Assembly: GCA_040771865.1 (NCBI GenBank)
Contig: JAXGZF010000007.1
Location: forward strand, 1 to 64,000
Reading direction: 5' to 3'
Length of the DNA stretch: 64,000 nt
Source of the DNA: Desulfobacterales bacterium
GTDB lineage: Bacteria > Desulfobacterota > Desulfobacteria > Desulfobacterales > UBA2245
Position numbers: made by a program. Positions 1 to 15,000 of the stretch are shown piece by piece; the first letter of the stretch is position 1, and each line of letters starts with the position of its first letter.

Positions 1-3000
1 GTACGTGCCCGGCGACAGCCTGGTAATGATGGACACCTCGAATCTGGACGACGAGGAAACGCCCGATCCGGCCGCCACGGCCATGGAGAAGAATTTCTGG
101 CTGAGGGAGTTTCTGATCACCCGGGCACAGGGCGAGCGCAATCCGTTCGAACCCACGGAAAACATCCGGATCACGATCACGGATGAAGAGACCGAGGAGG
201 CTTGAGCGGCAAACATTCCGATTGTTTGTAACGATTGAAAGGGAACCCGAGTCGCTCTCGTCGGCCAGGGTTCCCTTTTCTTTAACAGGGTTCTGAGGCC
301 GCCATTCAGCGTTGCACGGCTCTCTCCAACGCTCACATATGCTTGAATATGCTGCGCTTGTCGCATCGCCGCGCGCCTTGCCTGACGACCTGATTCTTGT
401 TTTTCAACACCCTGTTAAAGGTTGACAGTTCGTTTGGTTTAAACGATAAATCTAAAGGCTTGGGCATATACCGCAAGCGCCGGATCTTTGGAATCGCGGG
501 ATGCTTGTGAACCGGTTTTGCCCACCCGATCAAAACAAACGGAATCTTCATGGCCGATTGCCAGACAAAACCAAAAATTATCTGGGATGAGCGCGGGGCA
601 AATCATGTCCGGACGGATTCCTGCACCATTGTCGGGTCGCGCGAAGAAATTTCCCTGCTTTTCGGCAACGAACCGGGAGGGAATTCGGGCGATGTCCGCT
701 TTACCAATCGGGTCATTCTCAATCCCTTTACCGCAAAGCAATTGTCGTCCGTCCTGAACGGGGTGATCCGGGATTACGAAGCCGTATTTGGCCCGCTGTC
801 GGAGACGAGTCCGCATTCGACTCAGGACGATGCGACCAGGGAGCAAAAATCATCCTTTCTTTTTCAACTGGTCAAGGAGCTGGATGTTTCCGTCGGATAC
901 GAGCGGTCTTTCAAAATCCTTGAAAGGTCTCTGCTGTCCGACCGCTTTCTGCTGGGCATCAGCAAGAAGGAAATCGAATACAAGGCCCAGGACCGGATCA
1001 TCCATGCCTGCGAGCAGATGGGAATGCCGCAAAGTCTGCTGGAGATCTTCGGCCAATGCCTGGTTGAGGCCAATTACGTCCATTTCGGTTTCGAAGATGA
1101 TGGCGCATCCTGCATTTACAAGGTTTATGTTGAATTCTGGGACCGCATCAAAGAGACGCTGAAAAACCCCCAGAATGCCGCCGGGCCCCACCTGCTGCAC
1201 CTCGGCTTCAAGTGGAACCCCTTCGAACCGGAGAAAAAAGCCATCACGCGCTATACCTGGCACCCCTGGCTCACCGAAGTGCAGATCCTCGACAGGGTAA
1301 GGGCCATAGCCGATCCCGGCAGGCACGGCCATGTCTTTGAAGCAGCGAAGGCGCTGATAAACATTGCCGCGGCGCGCATGCCCCACCAGGATGTTCTTTA
1401 CCTGGAGGTCACCGAAGCGGACAACCCCAGAAAATCGTTTGACATCAACGTATACCGGGGCGGGCTTCTGGTCGGGGAACTCTATCCCTTACTGGCCAGG
1501 CTCGGCCAGCATTATAACATTCCCTATGCCCCGTTTCACGAGCTGTACAATCAGGTCAAGACGGAAAGATTCGGCCACCTTTCAGGCGGCATCAACCGGG
1601 ACGGCAAGGACTTTTGCACCGTATATTACGGTGTGGCGCCGATCCAGGAAGATCGGACTCGCCGGACCGTCTCTACCGGCTTGGGCCGGCTCCGGCATTC
1701 GGACGATCCTTTCTCGGTCGAGAAAACCGATGCCCAGGCCGGCGTTCTTCTTGAACGGGTCAGAAACCTCGGTGTGCCGTTCGGATTCGAACGTTCCTTC
1801 AAGGTTACTCAGAACATCTTTCTCCCGGATCGCTTCCTGGCCGGCTTCGAACGCAAGGAGGTGGTACAGCGGGAACGCGTTCTGGAAATCTGCCGGAACA
1901 TCAACATGCCGGCCGATTTTCTGGAGCGCTTCGAGGAGAAATATTCTGCCGCAAACATCGTTCTTTTCGGCTTTGAAAGGAACGAAAAAGGCTTCATATA
2001 CAAGGCCTATCTCGAGTTCATTGACAAACTTCAAACAGCAGTCGATGTGAACCCGGACGACCCCGAACCTTTTGAGATGTTTACCGGCTTCAAATGGGAG
2101 GGCGACGATCCGTCGCGCAAAGTTCAGACCCGCTATACCTGCTTTCCGTCCTATGTCTTGAAAGACATGGCCGATCAGACGGCGCGGTTTTTCCTCCCGA
2201 CGACAAAGACCGAACCCGCCTCAATCGTCCACGGAATACTCGATCTGGCCTCGCACAGGGCCGGGCCGCGGGAATTTCTCTATTTCGAAGCAAACGAGGC
2301 CGGCACTGACAGATCCTCGTTTTCCATCAATCTTTACCGCGCCGGGCTGCGCATGGCGGAGGCATACCCCCTGCTGCTGGACATGACGCGTTATTACGCG
2401 ATTCCGAAGGATGCATTCCACCGGGCCTATGAGGCATCCAAAACACAGATTCTGGGCAATGTTGCCGGCGGCATCGACCGGCAGGGAAGAAATTTTCTAA
2501 CCTTTTATTACGCCCACAGGGGAAGTTCGAGAAAGGGGAAGCCCTGAGAAAATGAACCTGACGGCGCCACCGGACGCTCAGGCCATGATCGGCGGCAGGA
2601 TCGATTTCAGCAGATACTGCGTGATTTCGATATGGTTCGGTTGCAACAACAACTGCACCATCTGCATGCTCGGAGCGGTGAAAAGCGGCCTGCCGGCGAT
2701 CAGCTACGAGGGATACCGAAAGGTCGTCATCGACATCATGCGAGACGGCCGGTTCGAGAACCTGATTCTCTCGGGGGCGGAAGTGACCACCTTTGACGAC
2801 TTGGATCGCTACGTGCGGTGCGCAGCGTCCCTGGGATGGTTCAAAAGAATCCAGATCCAGACCAACGGCAGGCGGTTGCGTGATCCGGAATATCTGGATC
2901 ATCTGATCGATTGCGGGGTGAACGAGTTTTTTGTCAGCATTCACGGGCTCGCGGAAACCCATGACGCCGTCACCCGCGTTCCGGGATCATTCGGCGAAAC

Positions 3001-12000: not shown

Positions 12001-15000
12001 CAACCGACCTGTCCGGCGCCGGTATCTGCCCGACCGGATCCATGCCTCGTCGGATGAAAAATGGAGAGCTGTGGTGCAGACTATTTCACGGGAGCATGCC
12101 GAGGGCCGGCCGGTGCTCGTGGGAACCCGGTCCGTCGAAGCCTCCGAGCATCTGAGCGGCCTTCTGGAACAGGAAAATCTGCCCCACAAGGTGCTCAATG
12201 CCCGGCAGGACAAGGAGGAAGCGGAAATCATCGCCATGGCCGGAAATGTGGGACGGATCACCGTGGCCACCAACATGGCCGGACGGGGGACGGATATCCG
12301 CCTGAGCGAGGGTGTTACGGACCTGGGCGGGCTCTTTGTCATCGCCACCGAACGCCATGAAGCCCAGCGGATTGATCGACAGCTCTTCGGCCGCTGCGGC
12401 CGGCAGGGAGATCCCGGCGCCTGCGTCGCCATGGTTTCTCTCGATGACGAGCTGGCCACCGTGCATGCCAAGGGAGTGCCCAGGTGGATCGGTATCCTGG
12501 CGGCCAAAACCGGCATCGAATTCCTGTCGAGATGGGCGGGCGCCCTGGTATTCTGGTACGCACAACAATCGGCGCAGCGCCAGTACGCGCGCATACGTCG
12601 CAACCTGCTGAAAATGGATGACCGGATCGGCGAGTCCCTCGCCTTTTCGGGTCGACCCGAGTGACGGAGTTAAATGATGTTCAAGCGCATGACAACCCTA
12701 TTACAAGCCGCGATTTTCCTGTTGATGCTTCTTGGCGGGGCCGCCGGATTTGCGTCAGCCGACAGTTCCGAGCCCGAGTTCGACGGGCTCATCGAACCAT
12801 ACCGGGTGGCGGAAGTGGGCAGTGAGGTGCCCGGCATCCTCGACAGCGTCAAGGTCGAACGCGGCGACATGGTCAAAGCGGGCCAGGTGGTGGCGACGCT
12901 GCGCTCGGGCGTCGAGGCGGCCAATCTGGAGCTGGCCAAAGCCCGGGCGGAAATGGATGCCAATGTCCAGTTGAAGCGTTCGGCTCTGGAATTTGCGAAA
13001 AGAAACAGCCAGCGCATGAAAGAACTGTATGATGCCAAGGCCCTGGCCTTTCAAAAATGGGACGAGGTGGAAACCCAGCGGATCATGGCTGAAAAGGAAC
13101 TGACGGTTGCCCTGGAACAGAAACAGCTCTTCGAGCTGGAACACCGACAGGCCGATGAACTGCTTAGACGCAAGACGATTCAGAGCCCGTTAACAGGCGT
13201 GGTTATGGAGCGCTACCTTTTCAAGGGGGAGTATGTTGAAAACAATCCGATCCTCAAGATCGCTCAGATCAATCCGTTAAACGTAGAAGTGGTGATGCCG
13301 GTTTCACAGATCGGCAGAATCAAAATCGGCACAAAAGCCACGGTAAAGCCCGAAGACCCCTTGGGCGGGACGCGTCAGGCGGTCGTCACCATCGTGGACA
13401 AGGTGATGGACGCGGCCAGCGGCACCTTCGGAGTGCGTCTGGAAATCCCCAATCCAATGCATGAAATTCCGCCAGGCTTGAAATGCAGGGTGCTTTTCCA
13501 AAAACCCTGATTCCACCCTGCCCCGGTCCTCCGGCGCCTGGAGGAAAATTGATCATTATGAAGCCATCAAGCAGAGGAAATCGAAAATGAGCCCTAAAAC
13601 AGCCCTTATGCTGATCATCACCGCTGTTTGGCTGCCCCTGATCGTTCCACCTCAGGAGGCTGCGGCCACGGAGACGCATGAGCCACAAATCTACACCCTG
13701 GAAGCAACCATCGCCGAAGCTCTGAAAAACAACTGGGACCTCAAGGCCCTGGAAGAAAAATTAACCCAGGCCCAGGAGGTGAAAAAACAGGCCAGAGCTG
13801 ATTTCCTGCCCCGTTTAAAGACCAGTTACTCCTATACCGGACTCGATGAGCCCTCCAATTACGAATCGAGCTATGGCGGAAACATCGCCGTCAGCTCCAG
13901 AGAGAGTTTCCAGTGGCGCAGCACCGTAACACAGCCGATTTTTGCGGGATTCGGTCTGATCAGCGCCTATCGACTCGCCGAACTGGGCATCGACCAGTCT
14001 GAAATGCAAATCGAGTTGAACAAGCTGGATCTCGCCCTGAAGGTCAAGGAAGCCTATTTCGGTGTGCTGGTCATGGATAAAACCGTCGAGGTGGCCCTGA
14101 AAGAAGTCGAATCTCTCGCCTCCAATGCCGAGGTGACCCGAAGCTACTACAATGCCGGGGTGGTGCCGGTCAACGATCTGCTCAAGGCGGAGATGGAGCT
14201 TGCCGACGCCCAGCAAAAACTGGTCCAGGCCCGAAACCAGGCGGCTCTGGCCCGCTCTGCCCTCAACATCATCCTGGCCCGCCCGGTCAACGCGGCGGTC
14301 GATCTCGAGGATATCCTGGTGTATACCACCGAGACGGCTGTCTTCGAAGACAGCATCGGTATTGCCCTGAAAAACCGGCCGGAAATCCGGCTCATCGACA
14401 TCGATCTTCAGCGCGCCGAGCAGAAGATCAGGCTAACCAGGCGCGGATACTATCCGGAGGTCAACCTGGCGTATGACTACATCAAAGAGGGTGACTCGGC
14501 CGACGTGTCCGGAAGCCTATATCATGACGAAAAACGGTGGCAACTCGCGGTGGCCGCTTCCTGGACCTTGTGGGAATGGGGTAAAACCCACTTTGCCGTA
14601 AGGCAGGAAGAAAGCGCTCGTGAAGAGCTCATCAAGACCCGCAAGGCCATTGAAGACAACGTTCGGCTGGATGTGCGGGAAGCCTTGCTGTACATTTCAA
14701 CCGCCGAACAGAACATCCCCACCACCGAGAAGGCCGTGTTGCAGGGTGAGGAGAACCTGAGAGTCACCCAGGAAGGCTACCGTGCCCAGGTCAATACCGT
14801 CTCCGACGTGTTGGATGCCCAAGCCTTGCTGACCCAGGCCAGAGTCAACTATTACAAGGCCATGTACACGCACAGCCTGGCCAAAGCCCAGCTGTCGCGG
14901 GCCATGGGAACCTATTGAACAAGAGGTGTTGCAGTGAGCATGATCCGGTTCAGCCTTCAGGGGCTGAATTGAAATGATTCCGCCGATATCCTGATTTCGC

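Follow-up and report, generated by a model that had tools for sequence, protein, structure and literature searches.

The classical type I secretion system is HlyB-HlyD-TolC, and for giant adhesins it is LapB-LapC-LapE. Besides this system, Kamneva, Poudel and Ward (PLoS One 2015, PMC4452313) described in silico secondary SecA_DEAD proteins without the wing/scaffold domain, encoded in a conserved locus with a GAF-HlyD protein, a weakly Peptidase_M50-like/HlyD membrane protein, an HlyD/biotin-lipoyl protein and sometimes an OEP. They proposed that this SecA takes the place of the ABC transporter's ATPase and that the M50 protein is the pore, and they stated that the biological role of the locus was completely unknown. 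In the available main text of that paper, the terms DUF3467, RTX, calcium, adhesin and giant do not occur, and its supplementary neighbour-cluster tables may list large neighbours. The available text of West-Roberts et al. (bioRxiv 10.1101/2023.11.21.568195) describes giant proteins of Omnitrophota and Actinobacteria that contain SecA-like domains, and the authors proposed that these domains act in the export of the giant protein itself.

A ten-gene locus beside the end of a giant gene

The window is the 64,000-nucleotide stretch at the start of contig JAXGZF010000007.1 of a Desulfobacterales bacterium. ORF calling gave ten ORFs at 550-14918, all on the plus strand, which agrees with the ten-gene operon reported by the survey; eight of the genes had been named there, and the other two are the GAF/HlyD protein g06 and the 286-aa g03. 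The features are as follows.

2..202, plus strand: 3' end of a giant gene, cargo candidate, last 66 codons (frame 2 open from base 2, stop near 200)
550..2547, plus strand: g01, 665 aa, DUF3467 and two repeats (PF11950)
2552..3499, plus strand: g02, radical SAM enzyme (PF04055)
3569..4429, plus strand: g03, 286 aa, predicted ABBA aromatic-prenyltransferase fold (AlphaFold2 and Foldseek)
4429..6042, plus strand: g04, IPP isomerase (NUDIX type)/O-methyltransferase fusion (NF002995, PF00891)
6152..6490, plus strand: g05, 112 aa, DUF3467 (PF11950)
6499..6521, plus strand: G+C-rich hairpin with a 10-bp stem, then TTCTTTC, 9 bases past the g05 stop
6575..8482, plus strand: g06, 635 aa, GAF, TM and HlyD (Pfam/NCBIfam, hydropathy)
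8527..10674, plus strand: g07, 715 aa, PqqD-like, M50-like HExxH and HlyD (Pfam/NCBIfam, hydropathy)
10667..12664, plus strand: g08, 665 aa, short (wing-less) SecA (SecA_DEAD, SecA_PP_bind, P-loop_SecA)
12674..13510, plus strand: g09, small periplasmic adaptor of the RND_mfp type (TIGR01730)
13587..14918, plus strand: g10, TolC-type outer-membrane factor (PF02321)

The sister species also holds the module, as had been claimed: nine of the ten genes are 86-96% identical there, and g03 is 80% identical. The hairpin may serve in attenuation or in stabilising the mRNA. The window encodes all four signature proteins of the locus of PMC4452313, as given in its available text, together with the OEP, and by domain content g06-g10 is a member of this secondary SecA_DEAD/type-I-related module. 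The survey had proposed an undescribed export system. The export part of this proposal gained from synteny over far more loci, but "undescribed" did not stand in view of the 2015 description in the same paper; the survey itself had warned that the family might carry another name. On wholly genomic evidence, we believe with somewhat better than even confidence that the module, with the short SecA as its motor, is a type-I-like exporter that works without an ABC transporter on leader-bearing giant proteins, and, jointly, that 550-14918 comprises the accessory and machinery genes of a locus for giant-protein secretion.

The short SecA and the envelope proteins

In the short SecA g08, NBD1, the preprotein cross-linking domain and NBD2 are retained along with the beginning of the scaffold helix; its sequence shows the motifs Walker A (GEGKT), DEAD, TGTA and GRGTD. 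The matches to SecA_DEAD, SecA_PP_bind and P-loop_SecA confirmed the earlier description of a short SecA with intact motor and preprotein domains. The canonical 840-aa SecA of the same genome is 45% identical to g08 over query residues 52-654. The best match among solved structures was Clostridioides difficile SecA2 (6t4h, E=3.8e-140); g08 aligns to residues 22-612 of the 781-aa solved SecA2, and its end falls early in the scaffold helix. At E<=0.001 the search returned 22,250 homologous representatives, and of the best 150, 142 were 600-760 aa long; the counts given by the survey stand.

As a second SecA paralogue that would be dedicated to a subset of cargo, g08 resembles the accessory SecA2 of Gram-positives and mycobacteria. 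However, SecA2 proteins (762-787 aa models) still possess a scaffold, a wing and a two-helix finger and have SecY or SecY2 as partner, whereas g08 ends where the scaffold helix begins and shares its locus with genes for HlyD and TolC parts in diderms; all SecA2 family models scored far below their cut-offs on g08. The giants of West-Roberts et al. likewise combine SecA DEAD and preprotein-binding domains without scaffold/wing and are tied to giant size, but there the domains lie within the giant polypeptide, the neighbours are type II secretion-like and HlyD and M50 do not occur in the available text, whereas here the motor is a protein of its own, 665 aa long, within an MFP/TolC module.

The synteny of the protease/HlyD gene with the short SecA, claimed before, now covers 32 of 33 loci at g07 identity >=30%; at 24-30% the short SecA was adjacent in 0 of 15. 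The short SecA adjoined the g07 orthologue in 8/8 loci from genome contigs, in 9/9 phylum loci at g07 identity >=35%, and in 15/16 Pseudomonadota loci at >=30%. Among 401 phylum genomes, 12 had short SecA frames (<=760 aa, E<=1e-145); 11 of these also had a g07 orthologue at >=35%, and the twelfth was a contig-edge fragment. Locus L102 has a g07 orthologue (35% identical) and a LEPR-XLL giant, yet no SecA nearby, and many g07 relatives at 24-30% identity also have none; therefore, the ATPase is not indispensable to the wider g07 family. Pfam searches found no ABC exporter in the ten genes of the window, and none was found among 52 neighbours scanned at 8 SecA-less loci.

The short SecA could instead work with the housekeeping SecYEG to bring the cargo into the periplasm, where the M50-like protein trims the leader and the HlyD-type proteins and TolC cross the outer membrane. 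This is consistent with g08 being a true SecA homologue with motor and preprotein clamp intact and with a module that has no obvious inner-membrane channel besides the M50-like domain; the existence of SecA-less relatives means that the fusion-protein/TolC part can use another energy source. However, g08 lacks the parts that insert into or regulate SecY (two-helix finger, wing, most of the scaffold) as well as the C-terminal tail, the leader of the giants has no hydrophobic core, and the 8-nt overlap of the g08 start with the g07 end, together with the 32/33 adjacency, indicates a dedicated partnership. We consider export in two steps unlikely and prefer the ABC-less exporter with its own motor.

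The other machine proteins were assigned by Pfam/NCBIfam and hydropathy. A cytoplasmic GAF region, one TM helix (368-386) and a periplasmic HlyD-type membrane-fusion domain make up g06, and its orthologue adjoins that of g07 in 30 of 31 loci with sequence there. In g07, a PqqD-like N-domain is followed by an M50-like HExxH membrane domain and a periplasmic HlyD-type domain. With HEFAH at residue 210 and some five hydrophobic segments within 150-445, g07 matches the earlier picture of an intramembrane HExxH protein with five TM segments, and the alignment showed H210, E211, H214, N306, P307 and D312 to be invariant in 16 orthologues. The PqqD match was weak (20.3 bits; cut-off 23.4), and daptide_HExxH (NF041824) covered residues 18-405 at 134.8 bits against a cut-off of 300. 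This resembles leader recognition and processing in RiPP systems (PqqD-like RRE; the daptide HExxH protease NF041824), and because the PqqD-like domain stands ahead of the membrane-embedded HExxH, the layout suggests leader binding and then cleavage. Unlike the daptide protease, g07 scores below the cut-off and is fused to an HlyD-type domain; its substrate would presumably be a leader carried by a protein several thousand residues long, whereas that of RiPP proteases is a short precursor. The adaptor g09 matched TIGR01730 at 116.8 bits (cut-off 94.9), with a signal-like hydrophobic segment at 9-27, and g10 matched PF02321 at 198.3 bits over two stretches; a TolC gene is encoded with the module in 6 of 33 loci.

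Giant LEPR-XLL proteins next to the module

The contig start truncates the giant gene at window 2-202. In the sister species, the orthologue is a frame of 12,340 aa that has LEPR-XLL (NF012209) at its N-terminus and ends 218 bases before g01. Window bases 17-289 are 85% identical to positions 1439-1711 of L003, where a frame ends that stays open for 6,499 aa in L116, and the sister-species frame ending at this L003/L116 stretch begins with the LEPR-XLL motif (32.7 bits). Contig C8 of the same genome as the window carries three tandem giant genes of 6,768, 9,430 and at least 7,504 aa, each starting with LEPR-XLL (22.4-30.6 bits; cut-off 17); the last of them, cut off, matches the 12,340-aa sister gene, and window 2-202 is the 3' end of this gene. 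The common leader is a basic stretch followed by F-E-x-L-E-x-R-x-L-L-S-A-D, which is the NCBIfam LEPR-XLL domain. Its highest 12-residue hydropathy is 1.1.

LEPR-XLL giants of 1,858-19,211 aa adjoin the module in Desulfobacterota and Pseudomonadota: they abut it in genomes G314 (7,822 aa), G201 (19,211), G034 (9,417), G255 (15,080), G160 (1,858), G405 (7,900) and G401, and in loci L106, L107 and L108. The same layout was found in the cultured Methylosinus sp. C49 (giant of 8,847 aa, LEPR-XLL 30.6 bits) and Alisedimentitalea scapharcae (27 bits); for 12 of the 20 loci from Pseudomonadota, the fetched stretch did not reach the start of the giant gene. In the 401 phylum genomes, 11 of 13 LEPR-XLL carriers had a g07-family (M50/HlyD) match, compared with 24 of 388 non-carriers (Fisher's test, odds ratio 83, p=3e-11, with related genomes not independent). 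G124 and G162 have LEPR-XLL and no g07-family match, and 4 of the 12 short-SecA phylum genomes (G109, G142, G203, G342), all assemblies of 110-760 contigs, have no LEPR-XLL match. Giant repeats often fail to assemble in assemblies of so many contigs. The survey had named no substrate; the adjoining LEPR-XLL giants are now a candidate for the cargo.

Like the classical type I system (see also PMC5018854), the module has membrane-fusion proteins and a TolC-type channel, and its candidate cargo is giant, repeat-rich, RTX calcium-binding and encoded beside the machine. Unlike that system, it has a cytoplasmic SecA-type motor and no ABC transporter, a protease domain of the intramembrane HExxH type, a pair of membrane-anchored fusion proteins with a small adaptor as the third, and a conserved N-terminal cargo leader that replaces or is added to a C-terminal signal.

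Most RTX blocks of the giants fall within the C-terminal third, which resembles classical type I substrates that leave C-terminus first, so an N-terminus-first route is not established. This placement would also suit a module that does not transport the giants and is a site-2-protease-type processing or regulatory device with GAF sensing, the giants leaving by a classical ABC-type type I system elsewhere. HlyB-like ABC exporters do occur elsewhere in the genome (e.g., C5:148030-149694, beside a 1,476-aa RTX protein), and the GAF domain suggests sensing. However, three HlyD-type proteins, with TolC in those 6/33 loci, encoded together with a protease and an ATPase are hard to explain without a trans-envelope conduit, and no ABC exporter was found in annotated or scanned module loci; contig C8 gave no HlyB-like match at E<=1e-20. 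We regard a non-transport role as quite unlikely and keep to export of the giants by the module.

Accessory genes and the proposed export route

Inspection of the g01 sequence shows, after the DUF3467 domain (PF11950, 44.6 bits, residues 7-84), a pair of internal repeats of about 280 aa each, which are distantly g03-like (BLASTP of g03 against g01, E=0.013, at the C-terminal ends); the sister-species orthologue of g01 is 91% identical. The small DUF3467 protein g05 (77.6 bits) has homologues conserved over the full length (42-96% identity), with a short tail that is variable or absent. A DUF3467 protein occurs in 16 of 33 module loci and is missing from two whole genomes with the module, and counterparts of g05 elsewhere sit between the cargo gene and the machine genes. 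We regard g05 as an accessory of the module.

The radical SAM enzyme g02 matched PF04055 at 64.2 bits; every NCBIfam match was far below its cut-off (HxsC4, 94.6 against 500), and orthologues adjoin the module in L048 (51%) and L095 (36%). No family was found for g03 in Pfam or NCBIfam. Its AlphaFold2 model (pLDDT 76, pTM 0.69) gave 32 PDB matches in Foldseek at E<=0.001, and all those listed were ABBA prenyltransferases (best E=3.3e-6, probability 0.94-1.00, TM-scores only 0.30-0.48); the Atlas lead was PTase_Orf2. The predicted fold is thus like that of AmbP1, FamD1, NphB/Orf2 and the peptide enzymes LimF, KgpF, PirF and DciF, and an IPP isomerase, the would-be DMAPP supplier, is encoded next to it in g04 (NF002995, 151.3 bits, cut-off 127; PF00891, 85.9 bits). 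Unlike these enzymes, g03 has no sequence-family match and low TM-scores, and a paralogue occurs as a tandem pair joined to DUF3467. The prenylation cassette adjoins the module in the own and sister genomes, G255 and G636, in differing arrangements.

These genes could instead make a peptide natural product or small molecule, with the radical SAM, prenyltransferase-like and IDI/O-methyltransferase enzymes building it, the PqqD-like/HExxH protein processing it and the module pumping it out. The daptide_HExxH match and PqqD-like domain of g07, the partial HxsC-type matches of g02, the peptide prenyltransferases among the structural neighbours of g03, and the recurrence of the three enzyme genes beside the module in three lineages are in keeping with this. 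However, only 4 of 33 module loci carry the four upstream genes, all family matches are far below the cut-offs, no precursor-like gene was seen, and the genes that recur beside the module are giant LEPR-XLL genes and not small ones. The RiPP-like hints (daptide_HExxH, HxsC4) were rejected as a conserved function on the same 4/33 count, and the small DUF3467 protein was rejected as a RiPP precursor, being conserved from end to end without a variable core. We consider a small product very unlikely.

For the ABC-less exporter of giants, we infer binding, cleavage, transport direction and ATPase coupling from genomic data. The giant LEPR-XLL proteins would be the cargo. Their leader, which has no hydrophobic core and so is not a Sec signal, is probably recognised on the cytoplasmic side of the machine, most likely by the PqqD-like domain of g07, whose invariant HExxH site probably cuts it off. 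The short SecA, with ATPase motor and polypeptide clamp kept and the wing, two-helix finger and C-terminal tail (for SecYEG and SecB) gone, would feed the chain, still unfolded, into a conduit formed by the membrane domain of g07 with the fusion-protein domains of g06, g07 and g09, leading to TolC; an ABC transporter would take no part. DUF3467 may give optional help on the cargo side, as a chaperone or as a docking piece, and in this lineage the DUF3467-tagged tandem, the second prenyltransferase-like protein, the radical SAM enzyme and the IPP-isomerase/O-methyltransferase probably modify the cargo or a partner. The module itself was described in 2015; compared with the available text of PMC4452313, what this study adds is LEPR-XLL giants as the putative cargo, DUF3467 as an accessory, the prenylation cassette and the sister systems that lack SecA.

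Gene content of the operon and the short SecA

Ten plus-strand open reading frames, separated by small gaps or overlapping, occupy positions 550-14918. The domain scans agreed with the survey's finding on the makeup of this operon, in which g03 and g06 had been left without a name. We refer to g01-g04 as the upstream cassette and to g06-g10 as the module.

Genes of the operon (all coordinates in the window)
g01, 550-2547, + strand: 665 aa; DUF3467 at residues 7-84, followed by two internal repeats of about 280 aa
g02, 2552-3499, + strand: radical SAM enzyme; the specific NCBIfam models all score far under their cut-offs
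g03, 3569-4429, + strand: 286 aa; no family in Pfam or NCBIfam
g04, 4429-6042, + strand: IPP isomerase fused to an O-methyltransferase
g05, 6152-6490, + strand: 112 aa; DUF3467
g06, 6575-8482, + strand: 635 aa; GAF domain, one transmembrane helix (368-386), HlyD-type domain
g07, 8527-10674, + strand: 715 aa; weak PqqD-like N-domain, M50-like membrane domain (HEFAH at 210, about 5 hydrophobic segments), HlyD-type domain
g08, 10667-12664, + strand: 665 aa; SecA_DEAD, SecA_PP_bind and P-loop_SecA; overlaps the end of g07 by 8 nt
g09, 12674-13510, + strand: small RND_mfp-type adaptor with a signal-like N-terminus
g10, 13587-14918, + strand: TolC-type channel; OEP, 198.3 bits

The Pfam domains HlyD_3/HlyD_D23 were found in g06, g07 and g09. 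The promoter and terminator scan of positions 1-15400 gave counts of 5 against 5.8 and 20 against 15.9 in shuffled sequence, which is not above the shuffled level. The genes that follow the operon, for an M24 peptidase and an MscS channel (15125-17720), are probably unrelated to the module because their position is kept only in the sister species.

The genome encodes two SecA homologues, and the canonical one (840 aa), located elsewhere, is 45% identical to g08. When g08 was aligned with residues 22-612 of a solved SecA2 of 781 aa, the alignment stopped where g08 ends, in the first part of the scaffold helix; g08 therefore has neither the rest of the scaffold nor the wing domain, the two-helix finger and the C-terminal tail, and the wing/scaffold Pfam domain is absent from its matches. 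The parts of SecA that face SecY and SecB are thus lost. The motor is intact in sequence, with Walker A (GEGKT), DEAD, TGTA and the arginine-finger region, and the scores for PF07517 (344.9 bits), PF21090 (191.6) and PF01043 (90.6) showed that NBD1, NBD2 and the preprotein cross-linking domain are present. The protein scored under the canonical SecA cut-offs of TIGR00963 and NF009538 (609.1 vs 800 and 628.8 vs 814) and under every SecA2 cut-off (TIGR03714, TIGR04221, TIGR04397 and NF012136: 499 vs 930, 470.8 vs 725, 568.9 vs 1085 and 417.5 vs 1100).

The large family reported for the short SecA was reproduced: 22,250 representatives matched at E<=0.001, and 142 of the best 150 were 600-760 aa long and aligned to the last residues of the query. 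The best 150 of the 22,250 all outscored the genome's own canonical SecA (at least 486.7 vs 474.7 bits). A FastTree phylogeny was built from these 142 representatives, 17 module-linked SecAs and, as the only outgroup, 7 canonical SecAs of one phylum; it included neither SecA2 nor SecA from other phyla and is no test of monophyly against all SecA/SecA2 lineages. The canonical SecAs formed one side of a branch with support 100, and the module-linked SecAs were scattered over 8 positions, with members in each of the two deep subclades of short SecA. All that follows from the tree is that linkage to the module extends over the diversity of short SecA that was sampled. Annotation of the family in databases is inconsistent. 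For example, the RefSeq/NCBI name of the short SecA is 'prepilin peptidase' both in Methylosinus sp. C49 and in a Desulfobacteraceae MAG (locus L120 on plasmid pMSC49a of Methylosinus, 14222-16138; protein P0010), and 'translocase', 'DEAD/DEAH box helicase' and 'preprotein translocase subunit SecA' are used elsewhere.

A locus of this kind has been described before. Kamneva, Poudel and Ward (2015) reported in their main text 'secondary SecA_DEAD domain proteins' that had lost the wing-scaffold domain and whose conserved locus also encodes a GAF+HlyD protein, a membrane protein that is weakly M50-like and carries HlyD, an HlyD/biotin-lipoyl protein and sometimes an OEP, and proposed that SecA is the ATPase instead of an ABC transporter and the M50 protein the pore (PMC4452313). 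Among the loci that they name is META1p2399-2402 of Methylobacterium extorquens AM1 (PMC4452313). Every feature of that locus is found in g06-g10: an additional wing-less SecA, GAF+HlyD, M50-like/HlyD, adaptor and OEP. The interpretation of the operon is therefore partly supported: its reading as an export module has support, and its description as new does not, since the module was already a computational prediction in the main text of that paper (PMC4452313). It belongs to a kind that is already known as a computational prediction and is experimentally untouched. The main text of the 2015 paper, as distinct from its supplements, names no specific substrate, and the terms DUF3467, RTX, calcium, adhesin and giant do not appear in it (PMC4452313).

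The module shares with the type I secretion system its membrane-fusion proteins (g06, g07, g09) and TolC-type factor (g10), whereas the ABC transporter that serves there as inner-membrane energiser is absent from g01-g10; no ABC domain was found in the ten genes. Similarly, no ABC exporter was found among 52 neighbours scanned in 8 loci without SecA, no HlyB-like match at E<=1e-20 on contig C8 of the same genome, and none is annotated in the Methylosinus module. The locus of Alisedimentitalea has only import-type ABC genes, about 6 kb downstream. Elsewhere in the genome (contig C5, 145185-149694), a 1,476-aa RTX protein adjoins an HlyB-like ABC exporter (422.6 bits, under the cut-off), and because of this adjacency a classical type I system that serves a smaller RTX protein is probably present in the genome as well.

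Distribution of the module and of relatives without SecA

Neighbourhoods were fetched in three rounds, from the genome_contigs collection, from 401 genomes of the window's phylum and from 351 Pseudomonadota genomes. The M50/HlyD search of genome_contigs gave 8 loci, 5 of the Desulfobacterota type and 3 on alphaproteobacterial MAG contigs, and the short SecA lay directly downstream of the g07 homologue in all 8. In the window's phylum, 35 of the 401 sampled genomes had a g07-family match at E<=1e-10; among the 20 places fetched, a short SecA adjoined 9/9 homologues with at least 35% identity to g07 and 0/11 of those at 24-30%. In Pseudomonadota, a homologue was found at E<=1e-20 in 94 of the 351 sampled genomes, and the 20 places fetched had a short SecA beside 15/16 homologues with at least 30% identity (the exception is locus L102) and 0/4 below. 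With these frequencies (94/351 and 35/401), the system is not rare. The Ensifer, Sinorhizobium, Rhizobium and Mesorhizobium plasmids gave M50/HlyD matches only.

The converse was checked within the window's phylum, with a short SecA frame defined as one of at most 760 aa whose match reached the end of the query at E<=1e-145. Such frames occurred in 12 of the 401 genomes, and 11 of these 12 had a g07 orthologue; the twelfth copy was a fragment at a contig edge. Across the fetched loci with a g07 homologue at least 30% identical, hereafter the module loci, the GAF+HlyD protein was found in 30/31, the M50-like/HlyD protein in 33/33 and the adaptor in most.

The loci whose g07 homologue is 24-30% identical retain an HlyD partner of about 490 aa, a small adaptor and an OEP gene, and no SecA was found in them. 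Near these homologues are giant proteins with DUF4347, cadherin, FG-GAP or SdrD-B repeats, some of which begin with a sequence like LEPR-XLL, the N-terminal motif discussed below (21.5 bits in genome G295 and 17.2-19.4 in G166; 12.9 in locus L057, under the cut-off). Because these relatives have giants and no SecA, the M50/HlyD giant-protein system is the broader one, and the SecA motor was added in one of its branches. Locus L102 (G686:C1:399000-418900) is a natural variant. Its g07 orthologue (35%) is accompanied by g06, an adaptor and a giant with LEPR-XLL (at least 2,597 aa), and no short SecA was found inside the 20 kb fetched.

Genes of cyclic-nucleotide signalling (PilZ, GGDEF-EAL, GAF-cyclase and adenylate/guanylate cyclase) recur near modules. 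They fit the GAF domain of g06 and suggest second-messenger control of the module.

Sites of cyclic-nucleotide signalling genes in fetched loci
L010, 3912-4211
L047, 15781-18855
L062, 4070-6667
L120, 20527-22464

Giant LEPR-XLL proteins as candidate cargo

Very long open reading frames recur directly beside the module at many of these loci. The Pfam domains in these frames are RTX calcium-binding repeats and PKD, cadherin-like, Calx-beta, LysM or DUF4347 domains. Contig C8 of the genome carries three tandem giant genes of 6,768, 9,430 and at least 7,504 aa, whose products have the N-terminus MGIARNLRRLA-K ... RKAMMEPLEPRLLLSAD and score 30.6, 22.4 and 29.2 bits with the LEPR-XLL model NF012209 (cut-off 17 bits). 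Neighbours of the module in other genomes scored 19.1-34.4 bits.

LEPR-XLL giants beside the module in other genomes
Genome G405 (locus L006): 7,900-aa frame
Genome G160, contig 21: 1,858 aa, directly after the short SecA
Genomes G314, G201, G034 and G255: 7,822, 19,211, 9,417 and 15,080 aa, each ending just before the DUF3467 gene
Genome G401 (locus L007): giant gene divergent
Pseudomonadota: loci L106, L107 and L108, and L102, which has no SecA

Two cultured strains carry the full locus. On plasmid pMSC49a of Methylosinus sp. C49, the order is giant (8,847 aa), DUF3467, g06, g07, short SecA, adaptor and TolC. The full locus was likewise confirmed in a plasmid record of Alisedimentitalea scapharcae KCTC 42119, whose giant of 8,148 aa is annotated as 'calcium-binding protein'. 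When its frame was extended past the RefSeq start, a LEPR-XLL motif of 27 bits was found immediately upstream (L122, 121-270, minus strand), and the annotated start probably cuts off the leader. A SapC-family gene is divergent beside this giant gene (L122, 453-1250). In Chlorochromatium, according to a 2026 preprint, SapC and a special TolC lie between two giant genes, and one secA (Cag_1676) is called recently acquired (10.64898/2026.03.19.712371).

In the window itself, positions 2-202 are an open frame without a start, 85% identical in nucleotides to the end of the sister's 12,340-aa LEPR-XLL frame, which stops 218 bases before the sister's g01. The N-termini encoded by the cut giant gene on C8 and by the sister's giant gene are almost identical. 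Because positions 2-202 and C8 both match one giant gene of the sister, the contig break at window position 1 most likely falls inside a giant gene, as judged from these alignments. The last 6 kb of the reverse-complemented C8 align about 15.5 kb short of the point where the sister's giant gene ends, so a gap remains. The start of C8 (C8:1-22514) and the start of the window look like two sides of one assembly gap of about 15 kb in a giant repetitive gene, and a join, judged from the sister, is plausible.

The association also held across genomes. LEPR-XLL was found in 13 of the 401 genomes, and a g07-family match was present in 11 of these 13 versus 24 of the 388 others (odds ratio 83, Fisher p=3e-11; the significance is overstated, as related genomes are not independent). 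Among the 12 genomes with a short SecA, 8 had a LEPR-XLL match, and for the other 4 the assembly consists of 110-760 contigs.

The leader contains a basic stretch and lacks a hydrophobic core (top 12-residue hydropathy 1.1), and for this reason its sequence does not read as a Sec signal. RTX blocks lie mostly in the C-terminal third of the giants, as in classical substrates exported C-terminus first. In one giant a LysM domain lies close to the C-terminus, which would fit retention of that end at the cell wall. Weak, sub-threshold matches to the peptidase M10 zinc-binding region and to the metalloprotease model NF038122 were seen near the C-termini of the genome's own giants (L076, L077) and of a 792-aa RTX protein in L004.

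Small DUF3467 proteins (PF11950, cut-off 25 bits; 77.6 bits for g05 and 44.6 for the N-terminus of g01) were found in 16 of the 33 module loci, in two of them as a tandem pair, and always between the giant gene and g06. DUF3467 is optional, because it is absent from two whole module-bearing genomes, one of them 100% complete with two modules. The domain is conserved end to end, with 17 invariant columns in 27 sequences and variable termini. We rejected DUF3467 as a RiPP precursor, since the domain is the conserved part and the tail is short, variable and absent in several orthologues. Its predicted structure (pLDDT 77) has three strands and then a long helix. The sequence profile found nothing meaningful in the PDB (best E 0.068, a designed repeat protein), and Foldseek gave 0 PDB matches at E<=0.001. 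A wide VIA-align search gave a best Z of 5.0 to COMM domains (rmsd 2.8, 57 residues), followed by Pur-alpha/PC4-like folds at Z 3.3-4.0; we regard these resemblances as a lead rather than a result, as Z values of this size can reflect only a common strand-strand-strand-helix arrangement. A SecB-like fold had been suspected, and no SecB chain was among the matches listed. The small DUF3467 gene has a strong GGAGG ribosome-binding site, and 9 bases past its stop there is a 10-bp G+C-rich hairpin followed by TTCTTTC (6499-6521), which could keep the DUF3467 transcript above the levels of the machine genes.

Candidate export route and the upstream cassette

The LEPR-XLL giants are probably the cargo of the module, and the PqqD-like domain of g07 probably recognises their leader, which the HExxH site would cleave. 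The HEFAH at 210 and N306-P307...D312 of g07 are invariant in 16 orthologues. Its Pfam score for Peptidase M50 (PF02163) was 18.7 against a gathering threshold of 27.2, which distant homologues pass (for example, 37.0 in L053). The protein scored 134.8 against a cut-off of 300 with the daptide/RiPP HExxH protease model NF041824, and no precursor-like small gene was seen near the module. A complex prediction of g07 residues 1-160 (16-row alignment) with a 60-residue LEPR-XLL leader (14 rows) scored 0.00 and 0.00, was run without controls, and counts neither for nor against binding. The short SecA would then thread the chain into a conduit formed by the membrane domain of g07, the fusion-protein domains and TolC, with DUF3467 as a putative chaperone or docking piece for the cargo.

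The upstream cassette may modify the cargo. The search with g03 gave 1,404 relatives at E<=0.001, and the best 120 of the 1,404 had no Pfam family or descriptive name. Foldseek with the g03 model (pLDDT 76) gave 32 matches at E<=0.001, and all matches listed were ABBA aromatic prenyltransferases, peptide prenyltransferases among them; the TM-scores were only 0.30-0.48, and a PT-barrel fold is predicted. When membership of PF11468 or PF19156 was checked, g03 had no Pfam match at E<=0.01, and among its Atlas neighbours (scores 0.84-0.89) these families were carried by only 11-41% of members. The repeats of g01 weakly resemble g03 (E=0.013). Because an IPP isomerase is encoded next door, prenylation would be the natural reading of the predicted g03 fold.

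Beside the module of G255, the radical SAM, g03 and O-methyltransferase genes recur on the strand opposite to it, at 47-51% identity. They also recur beside the module of G636, a Pseudomonadota genome, at 36-44% and there in the company of a g01-like gene. In L108, a single g01-like domain lies between the short SecA and the giant gene. Since the cassette recurs in different arrangements, its distribution argues for a functional tie to the module.

Taken together, we tentatively propose, as a possibility that we hold with some doubt, a distinct diderm secretion system reserved for the largest proteins of bacteria, which reach about 19,000 aa in these data. The LEPR-XLL leader at the N-terminus of the cargo would be cleavable: the PqqD-like domain would read it and the HExxH protease would cut it, and a SecA-derived motor working outside the Sec translocon would feed the chain N-terminus first through an M50/membrane-fusion-protein/TolC conduit, with DUF3467 as a dedicated chaperone. 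Prenylation and methylation of the cargo, in some lineages, would precede or accompany its export, and the relatives without SecA would form a second branch with another energy source.

A related arrangement has been proposed in cis. A 2023 preprint describes giant proteins of Omnitrophota and Actinobacteria that contain SecA domains without the wing, and proposes that these domains have a role in export of the giant itself (10.1101/2023.11.21.568195). There the SecA domains lie within the giant protein, a parallel to the giants that lie beside the module here. The link between the module and LEPR-XLL giants was not found in the literature searched, which did not extend to subscription journals and the 2015 supplements. 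In that literature, LEPR-XLL and DUF3467 are scarcely mentioned, nothing was found on how LEPR-XLL giants leave the cell, and no function or substrate is assigned to the second SecA of Gram-negative bacteria.

The second Gram-negative SecA was reported eleven years ago, and we believe that the cargo link is the part worth following. LEPR-XLL giants, named by the NCBI annotation pipeline, are among the largest bacterial proteins. The link between module and giants offers a concrete, testable answer to two questions, the substrate of this SecA and the exit of the giants, and points to cultured carriers. If the link holds, a SecA motor would have been reused outside the Sec translocon, and tripartite exporters would gain an energiser other than ABC, RND or MFS.
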